A stretch of 64,000 nucleotides of DNA, from positions 17,363-81,362 of the IMG/VR virus record IMGVR_UViG_3300037010_002253, one strand, 5' to 3'. The position numbers and the translations under genes were made by a program. How positions within the stretch are numbered: the stretch's first letter is position 1; each line of letters begins with the position of its first letter. Shown in pieces: positions 11,872 to 18,052 of this stretch. The notes under the pieces are model-generated. The model was not told the origin of the DNA and did no database searches. It worked only from the letters and a program-made list of their open reading frames with translations. This stretch comes from a virus.

Positions 11872-12987
11872 CTACCTCTCCACCAGCGCCTCACGGATGT
11901 CCGCGCGGATCGCCTCTTGGATGTCCTCGTGTTCGCGCAGAATCGCAAGAAACTGCGCGGCGCTCGACGCCTCGATGCCATACCCCTCTAGGTTCGCCCC
12001 CCGCTGCTCGAGGAGGTCGTACCCACGCGCGAGGTTGAACAACATGTCGGGGACGTCGAGGCCGGGCTCGATCTCGCTCGACCACGCGCCCTTGCCGCTC
12101 CCGCCGCTCTCCGCCCACGGTAGGAAGTAGAACGAGAACTTCCCCACCCGCTCCGGCGTCGCGGTCTTGTTCTTCACGCAGCGCACGTTGAAGGTCCGCG
12201 AGACGATCTTGCGGTGCTCGGACTTGTCCTTCTCGGTGTACCGCAACTCCCCTTTCTTGAACTGAAGGGCGATGCTTTTCCAGTGAAGGATGCTACGCGC
12301 CTGGATCGGTTCCGGTTCGGGGGTTCCAGTCGGGGACCACTTCCCGATCGCGCTGCGCACCTGAGAGATCCCGAGGATGGCCGTGTTCGACCCGCCCTGG
12401 TTCATCGCCGCGTAGGCCCGCCGCATGACACGCCCCCACATCTGCGAGGACCCGCCGCCGCCGTACGCCTGCTTCTCGATCCCCGCCGACGCCTCCGTCG
12501 CCGTGCCGAAGCTCTGGAACGAGTCGAGAGCCAGCAGGTCGATGAGACCAGACTCGAACATGGTCATGGCCACCTCCATCGAGGTGTCTCCCATCCCCAC
12601 GTCGACCATGATGAGCTTGTCTACGTTCACACCGAGCTTCCTCGCCCAGGCTGCGTCGAACCCCTCGCGGAAGAACCCAGCGGCGAGGCCGCCGTTCCTC
12701 TGGGTCTCCGCAATCGCGAGAAGCATAGCGAGAGACTTCCCGCTCGACTCCTCGCCGTGCAACTCCGTGAGCATCCCCTTCGGGTACCCGCCGCCCGTCA
12801 GGACGTCGAGCGTGTCGATCCCCGTGGGGATTCGCTGGACGGGCGGGTGGTCGGTCCCGAGGTAGACGTGACCGTCCTCGAGCTCCCTGTTGATGGTCCC
12901 CATCATCGCCTTGAGCTGCTCCATCCTCGAGGGGACCCTCTCGGTGGCGGCGACCTTCTTCGTCTTCGTGACCTTCTTCTTCGGCAT
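11872..12987 (-). CDS. recA: RecA/UvsX-like recombinase
   Basis: IPTGIDTLDVLTGGGYPKG, Walker A GEESSGKS, LALDS, ISQVR, VKNK. Confidence 0.9.
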   Translation of the reverse strand: MPKKKVTKTKKVAATERVPSRMEQLKAMMGTINRELEDGHVYLGTDHPPVQRIPTGIDTLDVLTGGGYPKGMLTELHGEESSGKSLAMLLAIAETQRNGGLAAGFFREGFDAAWARKLGVNVDKLIMVDVGMGDTSMEVAMTMFESGLIDLLALDSFQSFGTATEASAGIEKQAYGGGGSSQMWGRVMRRAYAAMNQGGSNTAILGISQVRSAIGKWSPTGTPEPEPIQARSILHWKSIALQFKKGELRYTEKDKSEHRKIVSRTFNVRCVKNKTATPERVGKFSFYFLPWAESGGSGKGAWSSEIEPGLDVPDMLFNLARGYDLLEQRGANLEGYGIEASSAAQFLAILREHEDIQEAIRADIREALVER

Positions 12988-12995
12988 GGTGACTC

Positions 12996-15869
12996 CTACT
13001 GCTTCGCCTTACCCCAGGACTCCCCGAACCCGATCTCCGCTGGCGTGTCGACGCGGAGGTCCTTGAAGCCGTACACGCGGTACGGGTGGCTGACGTACTC
13101 CTCGATGATCGGCCGGCACTCCTCCTCCGCGCCCTTCGGGACGTTGAACAGCAGCTCGTCGTGAATCTGAAGGGTCATCTCGACGCCCAGCTCCTCAAGT
13201 CGCTTGTCCGCGTCGATGAGCAGCATCGACATCTTCAATAGGTCGGCTGCACTTCCCTGGATGACGTAGTTGAACGCCTGCCGCTCCGCCCGCCTGCGCA
13301 ATCCCATCTCGTCGGAGTTGATGAAGGGGATGGCCACCCGACGCCGGAGGATGGTCCTCACGAACCCGTCCTGGCGAGCTCTGCGCTGGATCCGGTCGAT
13401 GCCCGACCTCATCCCCGCGTAGAGGTTGAAGAAGCCCTGCACCGCTTCCTTCCCTGCCTGCTCGCTGACGCCCGCCATCTGCGCGTACGTGCTCGGACCC
13501 ATCCCGTACAGGGTGTTCCCGACGACGCGACCCTCAACCGTGAAGCGATGCCGAGGACCTGCGTTCACGATGTCGTAGACCCGGGCGACCTGTTTCGGTT
13601 GTTGATAGAATAAGTGGTCAGCCTCAGATTCTGCGGCGAGTAGTGTCCATCGTTGTCGATCCGATCGAACACCAAGCCTTTGAAGGTAGAGTCCGACCAC
13701 TTCTTCAACGCCCAGCGTACGAAGTGCTCCCTCGACCGAAACAAGACCTTGATGCCCCTCCCCTTGTACCGGGGGGACGAGACATGCGTGTCCCTCTCGC
13801 ACCTCTGTACCATCGCGGCGTACCGACGACCGAGCATCGCCGCCCGGGAATCGTGGTACTTCTGCCCGCGCTGGCATCGGCAGTTCGTAGTTTTCCTCGC
13901 GCGAACGTTGTCCACTAGAAGCCAATGCTTCTTTTCGCACGCGGAGCACTCCGCCTCTACGTACCTTCTCGCCCTCGACCCCGGCCTCGCGCGCCGCTCG
14001 ACCTCGCCGGTCAAACGCATCGTACCCAACGGCAGCTTCCCCAGCTCCGCCAACAGCAAGTCGTCCGAAACGAACCGTGGATGCTGCGAGCCCGAACGGA
14101 ATCTTGTGTCCTTCATCGGTGTAGACCTCGTGGCCGAGAGTTGCGGTGAGACCATCGTAAGTGAGGACGGCCTTTTCACCCTTGAACACCACCCCCTCAT
14201 GGTGGACCCACTCTACCCCGTCCCATAGAAGATCGGAATCCTGAACTCGCTCGATTGGGACGAGGCCACGCTTCGTGAGAACCCGCTGGCCCTCCGCGAT
14301 GCAGCCGAAGTTGATCGTCTTGCTGCGCCGTCGCGCCTCGGGGAACTTCGCCTTGACCTCGTGCAGCAGGTCCCCGTCCACAGTCCGCGCTCCGACCCAG
14401 CGACGGACCTCCGAATCGATCTCGGTCGCCGTCAGGGAGTGCAAGTCCCACCCCCGGTTGATGGCGTTCAGCATCACCGCGTCGTTCGTGAAATGCGCCG
14501 CAAGACGCAACTCGATCTGGCTCAGGTCGATGTCCCCGACCACGCATCCATCGGGCGCGATGAACGCCTCGCGAATGTGGAAGGCGTCGTTCTCCATGGA
14601 CGGGATGTTCTGGAGGTTGTGCGCGGAGGACGACAAGCGAAGGGTCGCAGTTCCCGTCTGCTTGAGGTTGGTGTGGACCTTCCCGCCGTACTCACCGGCC
14701 GAGTGGATGAACGGCTCCACGTACGTTCCGCGCAACTTGTCCAGCTCGCGGTACGCCAGGATGATGTCCGCGATCTGCTTCGCCACTGGGTCCTTGAAGC
14801 TGGTCAGGGAATCGTCATCTGTCGACGGGAGGCCCGTGGGGGTTCGCTTCGCGATGGGCGTTCGGAGGTGGACCTCGAAGAGGTTCGCTACCTGCTTGGA
14901 CGACCCGAGGTTGAAGTCGGCGAGCACGTCATTAGAGACGCCGTACTTCTGGCAGGTGCGGAGGAACTCACTGACCGTATCCTCGATCTTCGCGTCGACC
15001 TGAAGCTTCATCTCCTCGAGCCGCACCGTGTCCACCCGACACCCGCGCCGCTCCATGCGGTAGAGGACCTGGGTGTAAGGTAGGTCGAACTGCTTGTAGT
15101 AGTCCCAGTAGGATTTGCCGTTGACCCACTCCTCCGCCTCCAGGGCGGCCCTAAGGACCTCGAACCCCATCAGGGAGAAGAGCGGGTCTTTGCAGGCGTA
15201 CGTGATGAGACGGTGGACGCCCACAGGGTCCTGCACCACCTCGTCGAGGTGGGGGACCTCAAACGTCTTGCTAGGTGTCCCGTCTCGCTTGAGCTTCGGC
15301 CGCTTGAACGTCTCGCTGTACTCGCGGATGGCACCCCACGTCTCGCCGAAGAGGGTGATGAGCTTGTACCCGAAGTACCTCTCCATGATGTGTTTCAGGC
15401 CGTGGTACATCTCGCCGCTCGCGGACAGCGTGTCCATGACCTGCGTGTCCCCCGCGAACCCATCGAGCGTGATCCCGTGGTTCCCGCAGACGTGCATGTC
15501 GTACTTGAGGTTCGACCCGACCTTGCCGATGTCGGGGTCCTCCAAGACGCCCTTGAAGTGGCGCAGGGTCCCTTCCCACGGCCCCCAGTTCGGGACGAAG
15601 ATCCGCGAGCCAGGAGCGCCTGGGTCGTACCCGCACGAGAACTGTGCGCAGATCGCGCGCGCCTTTCCTTTCGCGTGCTCCTTCCTCGGGTCGCATCCGA
15701 CCGTCTCGGTATCGAAGCCGACGACTTCCGCGTCCCGGATCATCCGAAGGGCTTGCCCAACCTTCTCCGGGGTATCAGTGATGAACGCCCCATCGACCTC
15801 GGGCAGCGTCGGTCCGCTGTAGTCGCGCCGCTTCTTGCGGCCGAGGTTCAAGTGCCACTGGTTTCCCAC
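12996..15869 (-). CDS. polA: Family A DNA polymerase with 3'-5' exonuclease, intein-containing
   Basis: FDTET exo I, TATLRLSSSAHNLQNIP, DLSQIELR motif A, RRRSKTINFG/TLYG motif B split by intein, QIHDELL motif C. Confidence 0.95.
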   Translation of the reverse strand: MGNQWHLNLGRKKRRDYSGPTLPEVDGAFITDTPEKVGQALRMIRDAEVVGFDTETVGCDPRKEHAKGKARAICAQFSCGYDPGAPGSRIFVPNWGPWEGTLRHFKGVLEDPDIGKVGSNLKYDMHVCGNHGITLDGFAGDTQVMDTLSASGEMYHGLKHIMERYFGYKLITLFGETWGAIREYSETFKRPKLKRDGTPSKTFEVPHLDEVVQDPVGVHRLITYACKDPLFSLMGFEVLRAALEAEEWVNGKSYWDYYKQFDLPYTQVLYRMERRGCRVDTVRLEEMKLQVDAKIEDTVSEFLRTCQKYGVSNDVLADFNLGSSKQVANLFEVHLRTPIAKRTPTGLPSTDDDSLTSFKDPVAKQIADIILAYRELDKLRGTYVEPFIHSAGEYGGKVHTNLKQTGTATLRLSSSAHNLQNIPSMENDAFHIREAFIAPDGCVVGDIDLSQIELRLAAHFTNDAVMLNAINRGWDLHSLTATEIDSEVRRWVGARTVDGDLLHEVKAKFPEARRRSKTINFGCIAEGQRVLTKRGLVPIERVQDSDLLWDGVEWVHHEGVVFKGEKAVLTYDGLTATLGHEVYTDEGHKIPFGLAASTVRFGRLAVGGAGEAAVGYDAFDRRGRAAREAGVEGEKVRRGGVLRVRKEALASSGQRSREENYELPMPARAEVPRFPGGDARSSVRRDGTEVREGHACLVPPVQGEGHQGLVSVEGALRTLGVEEVVGLYLQRLGVRSDRQRWTLLAAESEADHLFYQQPKQVARVYDIVNAGPRHRFTVEGRVVGNTLYGMGPSTYAQMAGVSEQAGKEAVQGFFNLYAGMRSGIDRIQRRARQDGFVRTILRRRVAIPFINSDEMGLRRRAERQAFNYVIQGSAADLLKMSMLLIDADKRLEELGVEMTLQIHDELLFNVPKGAEEECRPIIEEYVSHPYRVYGFKDLRVDTPAEIGFGESWGKAKQ
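13515..14303 (-). mobile_element. Intein (263 aa) in PolA motif B
   Basis: Starts CIAEGQRVLTKRGLVPIE (block A), TATLGHEV (block B), VYDIVNAGPRHRFTVEGRVVGN/T (blocks F/G; +1 Thr); removal restores KTINFG-TLYGMG. Confidence 0.92.
13565..14116 (-). CDS. HNH-type homing endonuclease nested in the intein, +1 frame
   Basis: CSAC...NCRC, YAAMVQRC, YKGRGIKV, DRIDNDGHYSPQNLRLTT...NNRNR phage HNH signature; GAGGT RBS 8 nt before ATG 14116. Confidence 0.85.
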   Translation of the reverse strand: MKDTRFRSGSQHPRFVSDDLLLAELGKLPLGTMRLTGEVERRARPGSRARRYVEAECSACEKKHWLLVDNVRARKTTNCRCQRGQKYHDSRAAMLGRRYAAMVQRCERDTHVSSPRYKGRGIKVLFRSREHFVRWALKKWSDSTFKGLVFDRIDNDGHYSPQNLRLTTYSINNRNRSPGSTTS

Positions 15870-15942: not shown

Positions 15943-16887
15943 TCAGCCCATGATCGTGTCGTCGTCCATGTCCTCCGTGTAGCTAGAGGTCGACGCGGCA
16001 TCCGGTCCGCCCGCGAACGGGTTGTCGATGCCGAGCTTCTCCGCCTGGGTCTTCGCCGACATCGGCTTGCAGACCGCGGGAAGATCCCACGGTTCAAGGT
16101 CGTCGAGCCAGTCGGGCTGCTCGCCGAACTCGTCCATGATGGGGTTGAAGGAGTAGGCCGTGGACTTCCCGCCGCCGGTCCGCTTCACGAGGATGGGCAC
16201 GTCGAAGATCGACCCGCGCTCGGGGCTCTTGCAGCCCGAACACGCGAGGATCTCGGTCACGCCTTCCGGCAGGTCCGTGGGGTCGTCCACGTCGACCTCG
16301 CGGCCCTTCGCGTCCTTGTAGCCGAGGACCTTGATCTTCCCCTTCTTGCAGGAGCGGCACCGCTTCGCCGCGATGTCGTTCGCGCCGGAGAGGGCCTGCG
16401 CCCACATCATCGACATCGAGTACTTCTTCTGGCCACCGCGCGACCGCTCCAGCTTCTTCTTGCAGCCGTCGCAGGTGTTCTTCCCGCCGACCTCCTCGTC
16501 GTACGTGCAGGCGGTCCAGGAGGTCTTCTCCGAATCCTGGCCGCGGAACTTGACCGTGGTCGTCTCCTTGTGGAACCAGCGGGAGTCCGCGACGTTGAAC
16601 GTCGCCTTCGGCGTCGGCTTCCCGACCCGCTTGTCGTTCCGCTGGTAGGCGAAGCAGGGAACGCACCCGAGATGACCCTCGTGGCCCTGTGCGCAGGTCA
16701 GGGTCAGGAACTTGTTCCCGCCGAGGCTGATGGTGTGATCGTGGTTGAGGTACGGCTCGGACGCCGTACCGTTGAAGTACAGCTTCGCTTCCTCGCCGTC
16801 GTAGAGGAAGAAGTTCGGTGCGTATTGCATCCGGTCACGCTTCATCTCGTCCGCGACCTTGGCTACCTGTCGAAAGTTGGGAGGCAT
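15943..16887 (-). CDS. Single-stranded DNA-binding protein (gp32-like) with several CxxC motifs
   Basis: Between primase and polymerase; VKRTGGGKSTAYSF; acidic C-terminal tail. Confidence 0.65.
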   Translation of the reverse strand: MPPNFRQVAKVADEMKRDRMQYAPNFFLYDGEEAKLYFNGTASEPYLNHDHTISLGGNKFLTLTCAQGHEGHLGCVPCFAYQRNDKRVGKPTPKATFNVADSRWFHKETTTVKFRGQDSEKTSWTACTYDEEVGGKNTCDGCKKKLERSRGGQKKYSMSMMWAQALSGANDIAAKRCRSCKKGKIKVLGYKDAKGREVDVDDPTDLPEGVTEILACSGCKSPERGSIFDVPILVKRTGGGKSTAYSFNPIMDEFGEQPDWLDDLEPWDLPAVCKPMSAKTQAEKLGIDNPFAGGPDAASTSSYTEDMDDDTIMG

Positions 16888-16972
16888 GTTGCTTTACTTT
16901 CTTTGTTCGCTGTCCGCTATTCGGACCAGTCGATTCCACCACAGTTTTAGGGGAAACACTAGGGAAAAACAG

Positions 16973-18052
16973 TCACTTCTTTCGTCGGCCACCTCGTTCC
17001 ATGACCATGTTGTCGATGCGCCACTCGTCGTACGGCACGACCCCGTGGATCGCGTCACGGAGCTGCTTCGCTCCATCAGAGACCTCGACAAGCGAACCCA
17101 TGTCCTTCACGCCCTCAGGGTACTTGAGCACGTAGACCGACCCCGGTCCCATTTTCTCAAGAAGCTGGTCCCCGACGAAGAACGTGGTGAGCTGCCCATC
17201 CCGGTCGCTGTCGAACGCGAGGAAGACAAGCGAGTAGGTTCGCATCACATCGATCTGGTGCGTCGTCACCCGCGATCCCATCGTCGACACCGGGAGGTAC
17301 GGCGCGACCTGGGTCGGGTGGTCCCCGGGTCGACCGGCAAGGTGGACGTAGTTGGGGAGGTCGCCCAGGTCGAGCTGGTCGAACGCAATAGCGTCGAGCT
17401 GCCCCTCCGTGACGACCAAGGTCTTCACCCCGTGGGGGCGCCTGTGCTCCCCGTAGAGGTGTTGGCCCTTGGAGAACCCGAGATGGAGGTACTTGGGGTT
17501 CTGCTCCTCCCACACAGCGCGTTTCGAGAACCCAACCAGCAGCCCGCTCCCCGACCGAACGGGGATGGTGGCGCGCTGTGCTTCCGTGTCGAACCCGATC
17601 TCCCACTCCTTGAGCACGTCCTTCGTGAACCCACGGTCCAGCAAGTACTTCGGGCAGCGATCGTAGAGGGTCAGGAGACGGGGGTTCGGAGCAGCGTGGA
17701 TCACGTCCCCTGACGCCTTCGCGCCATGCGTGCGCCTCGCATCGTAGTCGGGGAGGATGGTGTCAGCCTCCTCCTCGGGGTCAAGTCCGCGGGCGAACGA
17801 CGCGGTCTCGCCGATCGCCTTCTGCGGGGACCATCCGCACGCTTCCACAAGGAAGGTGTAGATATTACCCTGCGCGCCACACCGCGACGAGTAGCAGACG
17901 TACAGACCCGTCTCCGCGTGCATAGCGAACTGGGTCCCGTCCTTGACGGCGTGGTACGGACAAGTACTTGTAAAGTTCCCGCTCGCAGAGAGCCGGATGC
18001 GCTCGCACCCGGCCTCCTTCATCCACCTCTCGACCTTCGCCGCGTTGCTCAC
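16973..18052 (-). CDS. DnaG-like DNA primase
   Basis: CPYH...CYSSRC zinc finger; PKYLH; TEGQLDA and AFDSDRDG TOPRIM motifs. Confidence 0.9.
   Translation of the reverse strand: MSNAAKVERWMKEAGCERIRLSASGNFTSTCPYHAVKDGTQFAMHAETGLYVCYSSRCGAQGNIYTFLVEACGWSPQKAIGETASFARGLDPEEEADTILPDYDARRTHGAKASGDVIHAAPNPRLLTLYDRCPKYLLDRGFTKDVLKEWEIGFDTEAQRATIPVRSGSGLLVGFSKRAVWEEQNPKYLHLGFSKGQHLYGEHRRPHGVKTLVVTEGQLDAIAFDQLDLGDLPNYVHLAGRPGDHPTQVAPYLPVSTMGSRVTTHQIDVMRTYSLVFLAFDSDRDGQLTTFFVGDQLLEKMGPGSVYVLKYPEGVKDMGSLVEVSDGAKQLRDAIHGVVPYDEWRIDNMVMERGGRRKK

Follow-up and report, generated by a model that had tools for sequence, protein, structure and literature searches.

A phage polA intein with an overlapping reading frame for a putative HNH-like homing factor

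The family-A DNA polymerase gene (polA) of the virus record IMGVR_UViG_3300037010_002253 in IMG/VR is interrupted by an intein whose DNA is coding in two reading frames. We analysed 64,000 nucleotides of this record (positions 17,363 to 81,362), a stretch that we call the window and to whose first letter the coordinates below refer. In the polymerase frame, the window encodes an uninterrupted PolA precursor with a 263-residue intein in motif B; in the +1 frame, the same DNA encodes an HNH-like protein. This element is probably a dual-coded mobile intein with a separately translated HNH-like homing factor. Both frames are under selection, the module is conserved across unrelated host genes, and a sister system in Jerseyviruses includes precise intein-less alleles. 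The features discussed are the following, where ORF stands for open reading frame:

12996–15869, minus strand: polA precursor gene, 957 codons, matching Pfam DNA_pol_A (E 3.7e-87) and the 3'-5' exonuclease domain DNA_pol_A_exo1
14304–15869, minus strand: N-extein, PolA residues 1–522, ending in the K-T-I-N-F-G of motif B, where Pfam profile positions 28–218 stop
13515–14303, minus strand: class-1 intein, 263 codons, PolA residues 523–785, from Cys1 to Gly262-Asn263 and followed by Thr
14064–14303, minus strand: predicted N-terminal Hint splicing region with blocks A and B, from alignments; best PDB profile match DnaE intein 7qil
13515–13604, minus strand: predicted C-terminal Hint splicing region with blocks F and G, from the alignment, ending in V-V-G-N
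12996–13514, minus strand: C-extein, starting with T-L-Y-G-M-G, the remainder of motif B; Pfam profile positions 217–380
13565–14116, minus strand: HNH-like ORF in the +1 frame, 183 codons plus TGA, matching PHROG HNH families, with codon-position variation that fits this frame
14126–14129, minus strand: GAGG, a Shine-Dalgarno (SD)-like core 9 nt before the ATG at 14116, formed by the block-B His-Glu-Val codons
13565–13567, minus strand: TGA stop of the HNH-like ORF, made of the block-F Val246-Asn247 codons
13874–13948, minus strand: four-Cys zinc-ribbon-like module (C57, C60, C79, C81), nearly invariant in 35 aligned ORFs
13589–13669, minus strand: HNH_3-like motif, F150-R176, from conservation in the 35 ORFs and an hhalign comparison with an HNH_3-bearing ORF

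The virus record is complete (81,362 bp, with direct terminal repeats), and the polA precursor is its sole family-A DNA polymerase gene, matching Klenow/Taq with an E value of 2.4e-64. An insert of 789 nt lies within motif B, between N-F-G and T-L-Y-G, and splits the DNA_pol_A profile, with positions 28–218 on one side and 217–380 on the other. The Klenow alignment picks up again at PolA T786, opposite L-I-Y-G-M-S. Taking the insert out restores motif B and makes the DNA_pol_A profile continuous, with position 218 followed by 217. The +1 nucleophile of the C-extein is the Thr encoded at 13512–13514. As polA is present in a single copy in a complete genome, splicing must presumably work, and it is on this ground that we infer protein splicing of the window intein.

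To characterise the splicing regions, the window copy was aligned with 28 related inserts from viral and metagenome contigs (n = 29). Invariant in all 29 inteins are C1 (codon 14301–14303), T10, G13, D28, G29, V33, G37, G42, T55 and H58 (the block-B T-x-x-H motif at 14130–14141), D244, G249 and N263. The +1 extein residue is Thr in the window copy and C, S or T in the relatives. The middle of the intein is essentially without conservation across the alignment; in the polA frame of the window it consists to 62% of R, G, A, V and E, and the whole window intein has no match in Pfam or NCBIfam. When a profile of the whole alignment was compared with the PDB, 22 chains were found at E up to 1, of which 20 were inteins. 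The profile of the first 95 residues found 19 chains at E up to 0.1, all of them inteins or intein-like domains, the best being the DnaE intein 7qil (E 1.5e-3), aligned over residues 5 to 86, through block B. Pfam Hint_2 matches three of the 29 inteins and Vint one, and the window intein is matched by neither. The predicted Hint assignment is thus based on invariant hallmarks, on the logic of the insertion and on homology that is weak but specific. A preliminary description, made from the sequence alone, had proposed a 263-residue intein from C1 to G-N/T in PolA motif B, open throughout, with an R/G/A/V-rich middle that holds no recognisable domain; the coordinates, the residues, the continuity of the Pfam and Klenow alignments and the composition of the middle all agree with it. 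It had also quoted a series of motifs for the +1 ORF at 14116–13565, all of which are present in the 183-residue translation, and had read a ribosome-binding site (RBS) out of the block-B His-Glu-Val codons and a stop inside block F, as the sequence confirms.

The HNH-like ORF spans 552 of the 789 nt of the intein (70%), and over this overlap both frames bear marks of selection. For the polymerase frame, the synonymous codons of the HNH ORF were shuffled 1000 times in each of 28 loci, and stops in the host frame were counted. In the window, the polA frame has no stop over the HNH ORF, compared with a shuffle mean of 6.3, and none of the 1000 shuffles was stop-free. The same holds across the family: host-frame stops are absent in 28 of 28 loci, where shuffle means range from 4.5 to 15 and stop-free shuffles number only 0–3 in 1000. 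The third frame of the window, which is not used, is shuffle-like, with 9 stops versus a mean of 7.6.

For the HNH frame, we took 16 sequences, among them the window, and averaged their pairwise differences at codon positions 1/2/3. The values are 0.347/0.238/0.640 for the Hint-N region in the polA frame and 0.385/0.287/0.587 for the HNH core in the HNH frame. Read in the polA frame, the overlap yields 0.582/0.469/0.457, which is not coding-like, and after the HNH stop the polA-frame pattern is back (0.382/0.270/0.668). Translated as HNH protein, the overlap DNA of the window is 54–66% identical to its closer relatives over about 170 residues (39–66% over all nine relatives compared); translated in the polA frame, the identity is 32–49% over 66–126 residues. 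No close relatives were found in the window's clade, which makes a classical dN/dS analysis (ratio of non-synonymous to synonymous substitution rates) impossible there, and the codon positions were thus complemented by a sister system of low divergence, eight intein-bearing Jerseyvirus alleles. Their exteins show 169/22 and 156/26 synonymous/non-synonymous changes. Over the overlap, 22/79 changes were counted in the polA frame, as against 69/32 in the HNH frame. Both frames are thus real and selected: the polA frame is kept stop-free, and the HNH frame is under purifying selection in the overlap. A frame-specific selection test had been proposed in the preliminary description, and its outcome favours the HNH frame by codon positions as well as by the Jerseyvirus counts.

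The sequence across the two frames recurs in independent samples. The stretch is present in three public runs, one of which (X1) is perhaps its source sample, and the comparison was made between contigs, not raw reads. Contigs of an independent microbial-mat sample (X2) cover 13400–13703, 13805–14111 and 14103–14400 with 0 differences and 0 gaps, and take in both frame junctions. Parts of the stretch are also covered, again with 0 differences, in a sediment sample (X3). Two compensating indels from assembly or sequencing could in principle place an in-frame endonuclease out of frame, and an intron or split gene could look alike if the polA frame were open by chance. We consider the chance that either applies to be negligible. 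The independent contigs, which also answer an earlier call to exclude indel errors, have no indels at either junction, and the same offset is found in dozens of independent contigs as well as in cultured phage genomes. A chance open frame is at odds with the complete lack of stop-free shuffles (0/1000) and with the invariance of the Hint blocks. The indel artefact, the intron or split gene and the chance open frame were rejected on this evidence of contigs, recurrence, stop avoidance and Hint invariance.

The two-frame layout is widespread. A locus was counted if the same strand carried, in another frame, an ORF of 470 codons or more that spanned the whole HNH match. With the HNH ORF as query, this was the case in 30 of 80 viral-contig loci and in 33 of 80 metagenome loci (46 were negative and 1 ambiguous); with the intein as query, the layout was present in six of six loci. 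Several loci duplicate one another or represent one contig in both collections, so that the distinct lineages number about two dozen. The GC content of the two-frame loci ranges from 0.39 to 0.65. The layout had previously been taken for a rare architecture, a view contradicted by these counts and by its occurrence in PolA and helicase genes of many phages.

Among cultured phages, Salmonella phage f18SE has a PolA ORF of 1032 codons that is open through the intein; another frame contains a homologous ORF of 247 codons. In f18SE (L001), L008, L035 and L053-L057, the embedded ORF takes the other frame offset relative to the host than it does in the window. Thus, either the frame relation has changed in evolution, or the ORF entered more than once. 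The combination of Hint and out-of-frame HNH-like module is also found in ResIII/Helicase_C helicase genes (L028, L067, L078) and in host ORFs without a Pfam match (L022, L026, L034). In two PolA-like loci, L004 (913-5391) and L045 (1674-5138), the N-terminal block of the intein is matched twice, and each apparently contains two inteins. A tblastn search with the HNH-like ORF also gave matches in cultured phages under dUTPase or DNA polymerase annotations, for example in Staphylococcus phages PT94 and vB_SauM-V1SA15, Streptococcus phage Javan104, EBPR siphovirus 2, Caulobacter phage RW and APSE-2 (P45). These matches suggest further unannotated embedded copies in cultured phages.

How could the embedded ORF be translated? 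The +1 frame is open across 13565-14200 on the minus strand, and two further in-frame ATGs lie upstream of that at 14116, at positions 14155 and 14200. At the other end, most embedded ORFs in the alignment stop at the same point as the window copy, after a conserved S-T-T-like tail. We defined an SD-start pair as an in-frame ATG, GTG or TTG in the HNH frame, located before the conserved domain and preceded by a GGAG, GAGG or AGGA core 5–13 nt upstream. Such pairs occur in 21 of 26 lineages, compared with 8.6 expected from synonymous shuffles of the host codons. Seven of the 26 lineages share a AAGGAGGT-type sequence together with an ATG at intein nucleotide 145 or 148, and in these the SD and start are built from Lys/Glu-Glu-Val and Tyr-Asp codons. 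In the window, a second SD-start option is provided by GAGG and the ATG at 14116. Judged by these signals, internal initiation would be the best-supported translation route for the HNH-like ORF. The proposal of independent translation, made in the preliminary description, is thus rendered plausible by SD and start signals within Hint codons.

The protein encoded by this ORF resembles the PHROG families named 'HNH endonuclease' (phrog_374, E 2.4e-23; phrog_3377, 4.2e-18; phrog_2081, 1.8e-10). Fifty-five database proteins are similar to it, most of them 46–73% identical; Pfam domains are absent from all of them, and their records give either the name 'hypothetical protein' or no name. An alignment of 35 embedded and free-standing relatives shows conservation of the four cysteines, of a Y-x-G-R-G-I segment and of the motif D-R-I-D-N-D-G-H-Y ... 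N ... N. Within the latter, R152, N155, G157, Y159 and N163 are invariant, and D151, D154, D156 and H158 are at least 90% conserved. The genome also contains a second homing-endonuclease-like gene, of the ordinary kind, just outside the window, a free-standing ORF of 252 codons at about 16462-17220 of the record (L170:1051-1809, minus strand). Its product combines an N-terminal zinc-ribbon module like that of the embedded ORF with a canonical Pfam HNH_3 domain (E 1.1e-6, above the cut-off). Comparison of our family profile with this ORF by hhalign gave a probability of 92.4% and an E value of 5.3e-7 over 146 columns. In this alignment, D151 is paired with the first His of HNH_3, the invariant N163 with the second His and N172 with the Asn. 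The near-invariant His158 is close to D151. The match to I-HmuI (1u3e) is weak (E 1) and confined to an N-L-R-x-V-T ... N segment.

Several observations hint at mobility of the module. With most relatives, the window shares 28–38% identity in the exteins, where two short local alignments come to 36% and 48%. Compared with the closer relatives, its Hint ends show 55–81% identity and its HNH part 54–66%, about twice the extein similarity. Hosts vary, comprising several PolA types and the ResIII/Helicase_C helicases, and the insertion point within motif B differs by lineage: it follows N-F-G in the window, lies one residue further on in L009 and L010, and precedes the window site by four codons in f18SE. 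Pairwise identities of Hint-N and HNH are correlated (Spearman 0.395, a value reached by none of 2000 permutations), and both parts therefore travel together. It had been suggested that a free-standing HNH gene invaded a mini-intein. This remains a reasonable account of the origin of the module; however, since the Hint and HNH parts are inherited together family-wide, nothing indicates an invasion in this phage, and such an event would be old.

The Jerseyviruses provide the intein-less state. The f18SE polA piece is matched by 401 phage records of Jerseyvirus/Kagunavirus type, of which 150 cover at least 80% of it and are taken to carry the layout. Among the 40 matches listed, 15 cover 99–100% and 10 cover 58–60% in two pieces. 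One of the latter, phage dunkel (L180), lacks exactly 897 nt, which correspond to the predicted intein to the base, and its motif B is intact. Comparing f18SE (L001 2157-2186) with dunkel, the 30 nt upstream of the insertion differ at many positions and the 30 nt downstream are identical. The upstream difference may represent a co-conversion tract or target-site immunity changes.

Taken together, these findings suggest the following scheme, in which we infer internal initiation, protein splicing, DNA cleavage and homing from sequence. Read in the polymerase frame, the polA mRNA would yield a precursor with the 263-residue intein. The N- and C-terminal Hint blocks would fold together, splice the polymerase and discard a poorly conserved linker of ~150 residues, which would be the HNH gene read in the wrong frame. 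Initiation in the +1 frame at an internal SD and ATG (14116 or 14155), with termination in block F, would give a separate protein of ~183 residues that carries the zinc ribbon and the HNH_3-like motif and could act as the homing factor of the element. This factor would recognise, and most likely nick or cut, intein-less polA at the motif-B codons, and repair from an intein-bearing copy would spread the whole module.

A number of observations weigh against a functional dual-coded homing intein in the window, and the first group concerns the embedded protein. The window ORF has no direct match in Pfam or NCBIfam, and an aspartate, Asp151, stands where the first, general-base His is expected, so that a nuclease mechanism can only be inferred. 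Thus, the protein appears to be a divergent HNH_3 derivative without the canonical general-base His, and to have called it a complete phage HNH endonuclease was an overstatement. The profile searches of both frames, which had been proposed as a check, likewise gave a divided result: PHROG HNH matches, Hint hallmarks and weak PDB intein matches were obtained, but Pfam and NCBIfam gave neither Hint nor HNH matches for the window copy. The embedded protein might not be a nuclease at all, acting as a DNA-binding or helper factor, as a degenerate HNH protein that finds the target site or brings in a different nuclease, or in some other phage role, while the intein spreads by other means. The Asp in place of the first catalytic His of true HNH_3 domains would fit this, as would the Pfam HNH_3 profile touching only two of 35 family members (E 0.0027 or worse) and the existence of another ORF in this genome that shares the zinc-ribbon module and has a canonical HNH_3 domain. 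We nevertheless regard a non-nuclease role as unlikely. Conservation within the protein is highest in the motif, the PHROG relatives are all labelled HNH endonuclease, and H158, four residues away, could serve as the base. Moreover, like homing elements, the module resides in conserved motifs of different replication genes and has precise presence/absence alleles.

The second group concerns the intein and the expression and spread of the window copy. Homology of the Hint regions to solved inteins is specific yet weak, with a best E value of 1.5e-3. The penultimate intein residue is not His but Gly262, a feature already pointed out in the preliminary description; among the 29 inteins, Gly at this position is unique to the window copy, whereas the absence of His is shared with many relatives, the position being H, S, G or L family-wide. 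Inteins are able to splice without a penultimate His. The SD site of the window is not significant on its own, since 66% of shuffles contain one. The ATG at 14155, the start common to relatives, is kept in the window, but its strong SD has been lost (Lys-Ala-Val). No near-identical DNA was found in the phage collection, no near-identical copy of the module was found (the best identities for the HNH ORF are 63% among metagenome contigs and 66% in the protein database), and no intein-less allele of the window's own polA was found among N-extein relatives in viral contigs. With neither a near relative nor an empty site, recent homing in the window's lineage is unsupported.

The lost SD at the usual start of the family, the unique penultimate Gly and the lack of near-identical copies and empty sites could alternatively mean that the window copy is a decaying relic, with an unexpressed ORF or an immobile intein that is retained only for splicing. 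We judge this very unlikely, as the ORF is intact and keeps all invariant and near-invariant residues of the 35-sequence alignment, a second SD-ATG pair is available at 14116, and the host frame is still stop-free where 6.3 stops would be expected. Programmed +1 ribosomal frameshifting from the polA frame, which would fuse the HNH-like domain to the N-extein and Hint-N, is more improbable still. Most lineages do have the ORF in the +1 frame of the same strand, and the individually unremarkable SD of the window would be consistent with such a mechanism. However, SD-start pairs are enriched family-wide, and a single shift mechanism would not serve f18SE, L035 and L053-57, where the offset is the other one. 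We thus retain the dual-coded mobile intein with a separately translated homing factor as the probable reading.

Directly 3' of polA lies an ORF of 371 codons (11872-12987, minus strand) with a Walker-A-like G-E-E-S-S-G-K-S motif, which by eye is RecA/RadA-like.

An out-of-frame endonuclease in an intein was reportedly described by Gorbalenya in 1998, as cited by two recent preprints. In the available parts of these preprints, inteins with an endonuclease in another frame or on the other strand are already in print (Gosselin 2025; Phillips 2026). The systems of Gosselin 2025, as far as the available text describes them, resemble ours in that a self-splicing intein has its endonuclease in another frame of the intein DNA, the in-frame middle lacks a recognisable fold, and a free-standing homing endonuclease entering an intein is the proposed origin. 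They differ in their hosts, which are Pol III alpha, minor capsid, terminase and thymidylate synthase there, and PolA and helicases here, and in the endonuclease families. Whereas the second ORF there 'typically lies outside the bounds of the splicing domain', the predicted RBS, start and stop in our family are provided by Hint block B and F codons. The layout is called rare in that text; it is frequent here.

In the part of the study of a cyanobacterial DnaX intein available to us (Phillips, DeSimone & Gogarten, 10.64898/2026.09.14.751524), an overlapping ORF likewise lies inside the intein, and within the overlap the frame-specific selection has the same pattern as here, being low for the endonuclease frame and relaxed for the intein frame. 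That case involves a bacterial chromosome, a LAGLIDADG endonuclease and another host gene; ours involves a phage and an HNH-like protein. The ShiLan 'hidden HNH' in phage DNA methylases (Arsenault, Gosselin & Gogarten, Genes 2025, PMC11855218) is also an out-of-frame HNH ORF in an insertion that is open in the host frame, and it raises the same question of how a hidden ORF is translated. According to the accessible portion of that article, ShiLan has no splicing domains and no detectable RBS, in contrast to the flanking Hint blocks and enriched SD-start pairs described here. In the fractured genes of environmental phages (Dassa et al. 2009, PMC2677866), again as given in the accessible portion, a separately translated endonuclease gene lies between intein halves in replication genes. 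There, the host gene is divided into two trans-splicing ORFs, whereas the host frame here is continuous and kept stop-free by selection.

A further comparison is with Jerseyviruses BPS11Q3, vB_SalS-S10, PIZ SAE-01E2 and fmb-p1, for which GenBank lists an 'intein-containing DNA polymerase precursor'. Like the window, Jerseyvirus PolA has a homologous intein in motif B with a homologous embedded HNH-like ORF. Its intein is inserted four codons upstream (after K-A, not N-F-G) and ends in His-Asn followed by Cys, and the ORF takes the other offset. None of the Jerseyvirus records examined annotates the embedded ORF. The literature searched describes no PolA intein that has an HNH out of frame, although supplementary tables of the preprints may list cases. 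The window intein thus belongs to a recently described kind, in a new host gene and with a different endonuclease family.

With PolA, and helicases among the relatives, a new host and a new endonuclease family join the short list of inteins with an out-of-frame homing enzyme. Phages often have this layout, among them well-studied Salmonella phages in which the gene is annotated only as 'DNA polymerase', and gene callers will keep missing such genes unless overlapping ORFs within inteins are searched for. Further interest lies in the breadth of the family, in the translation signals within Hint codons and in the Asp-for-His motif, which poses a concrete enzymological question. Pairs of intein-plus and intein-minus Jerseyviruses constitute a tractable system for separating splicing from homing genetically, because the endonuclease can be inactivated by changes that are silent in the intein frame.

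More tentatively, and with less confidence than we place in the window intein itself, we hypothesise that these elements form one large, old and previously unrecognised intein family. Its Hint domain and overlapping endonuclease would be fused as a dual-coded unit that has spread between PolA and helicase genes in widely differing phages. Hint codons (K-E-V ... Y-D in 7 of 26 lineages, H-E-V in the window) would double as RBS and start and block F as stop, and the Asp-for-His HNH_3 protein may use an undescribed variant of the HNH mechanism. The out-of-frame state would then be common and stable in phage inteins but overlooked in annotation, not a rare accident. The finding is also relevant to the idea of 'splicing first, endonuclease later' in the origin of inteins.

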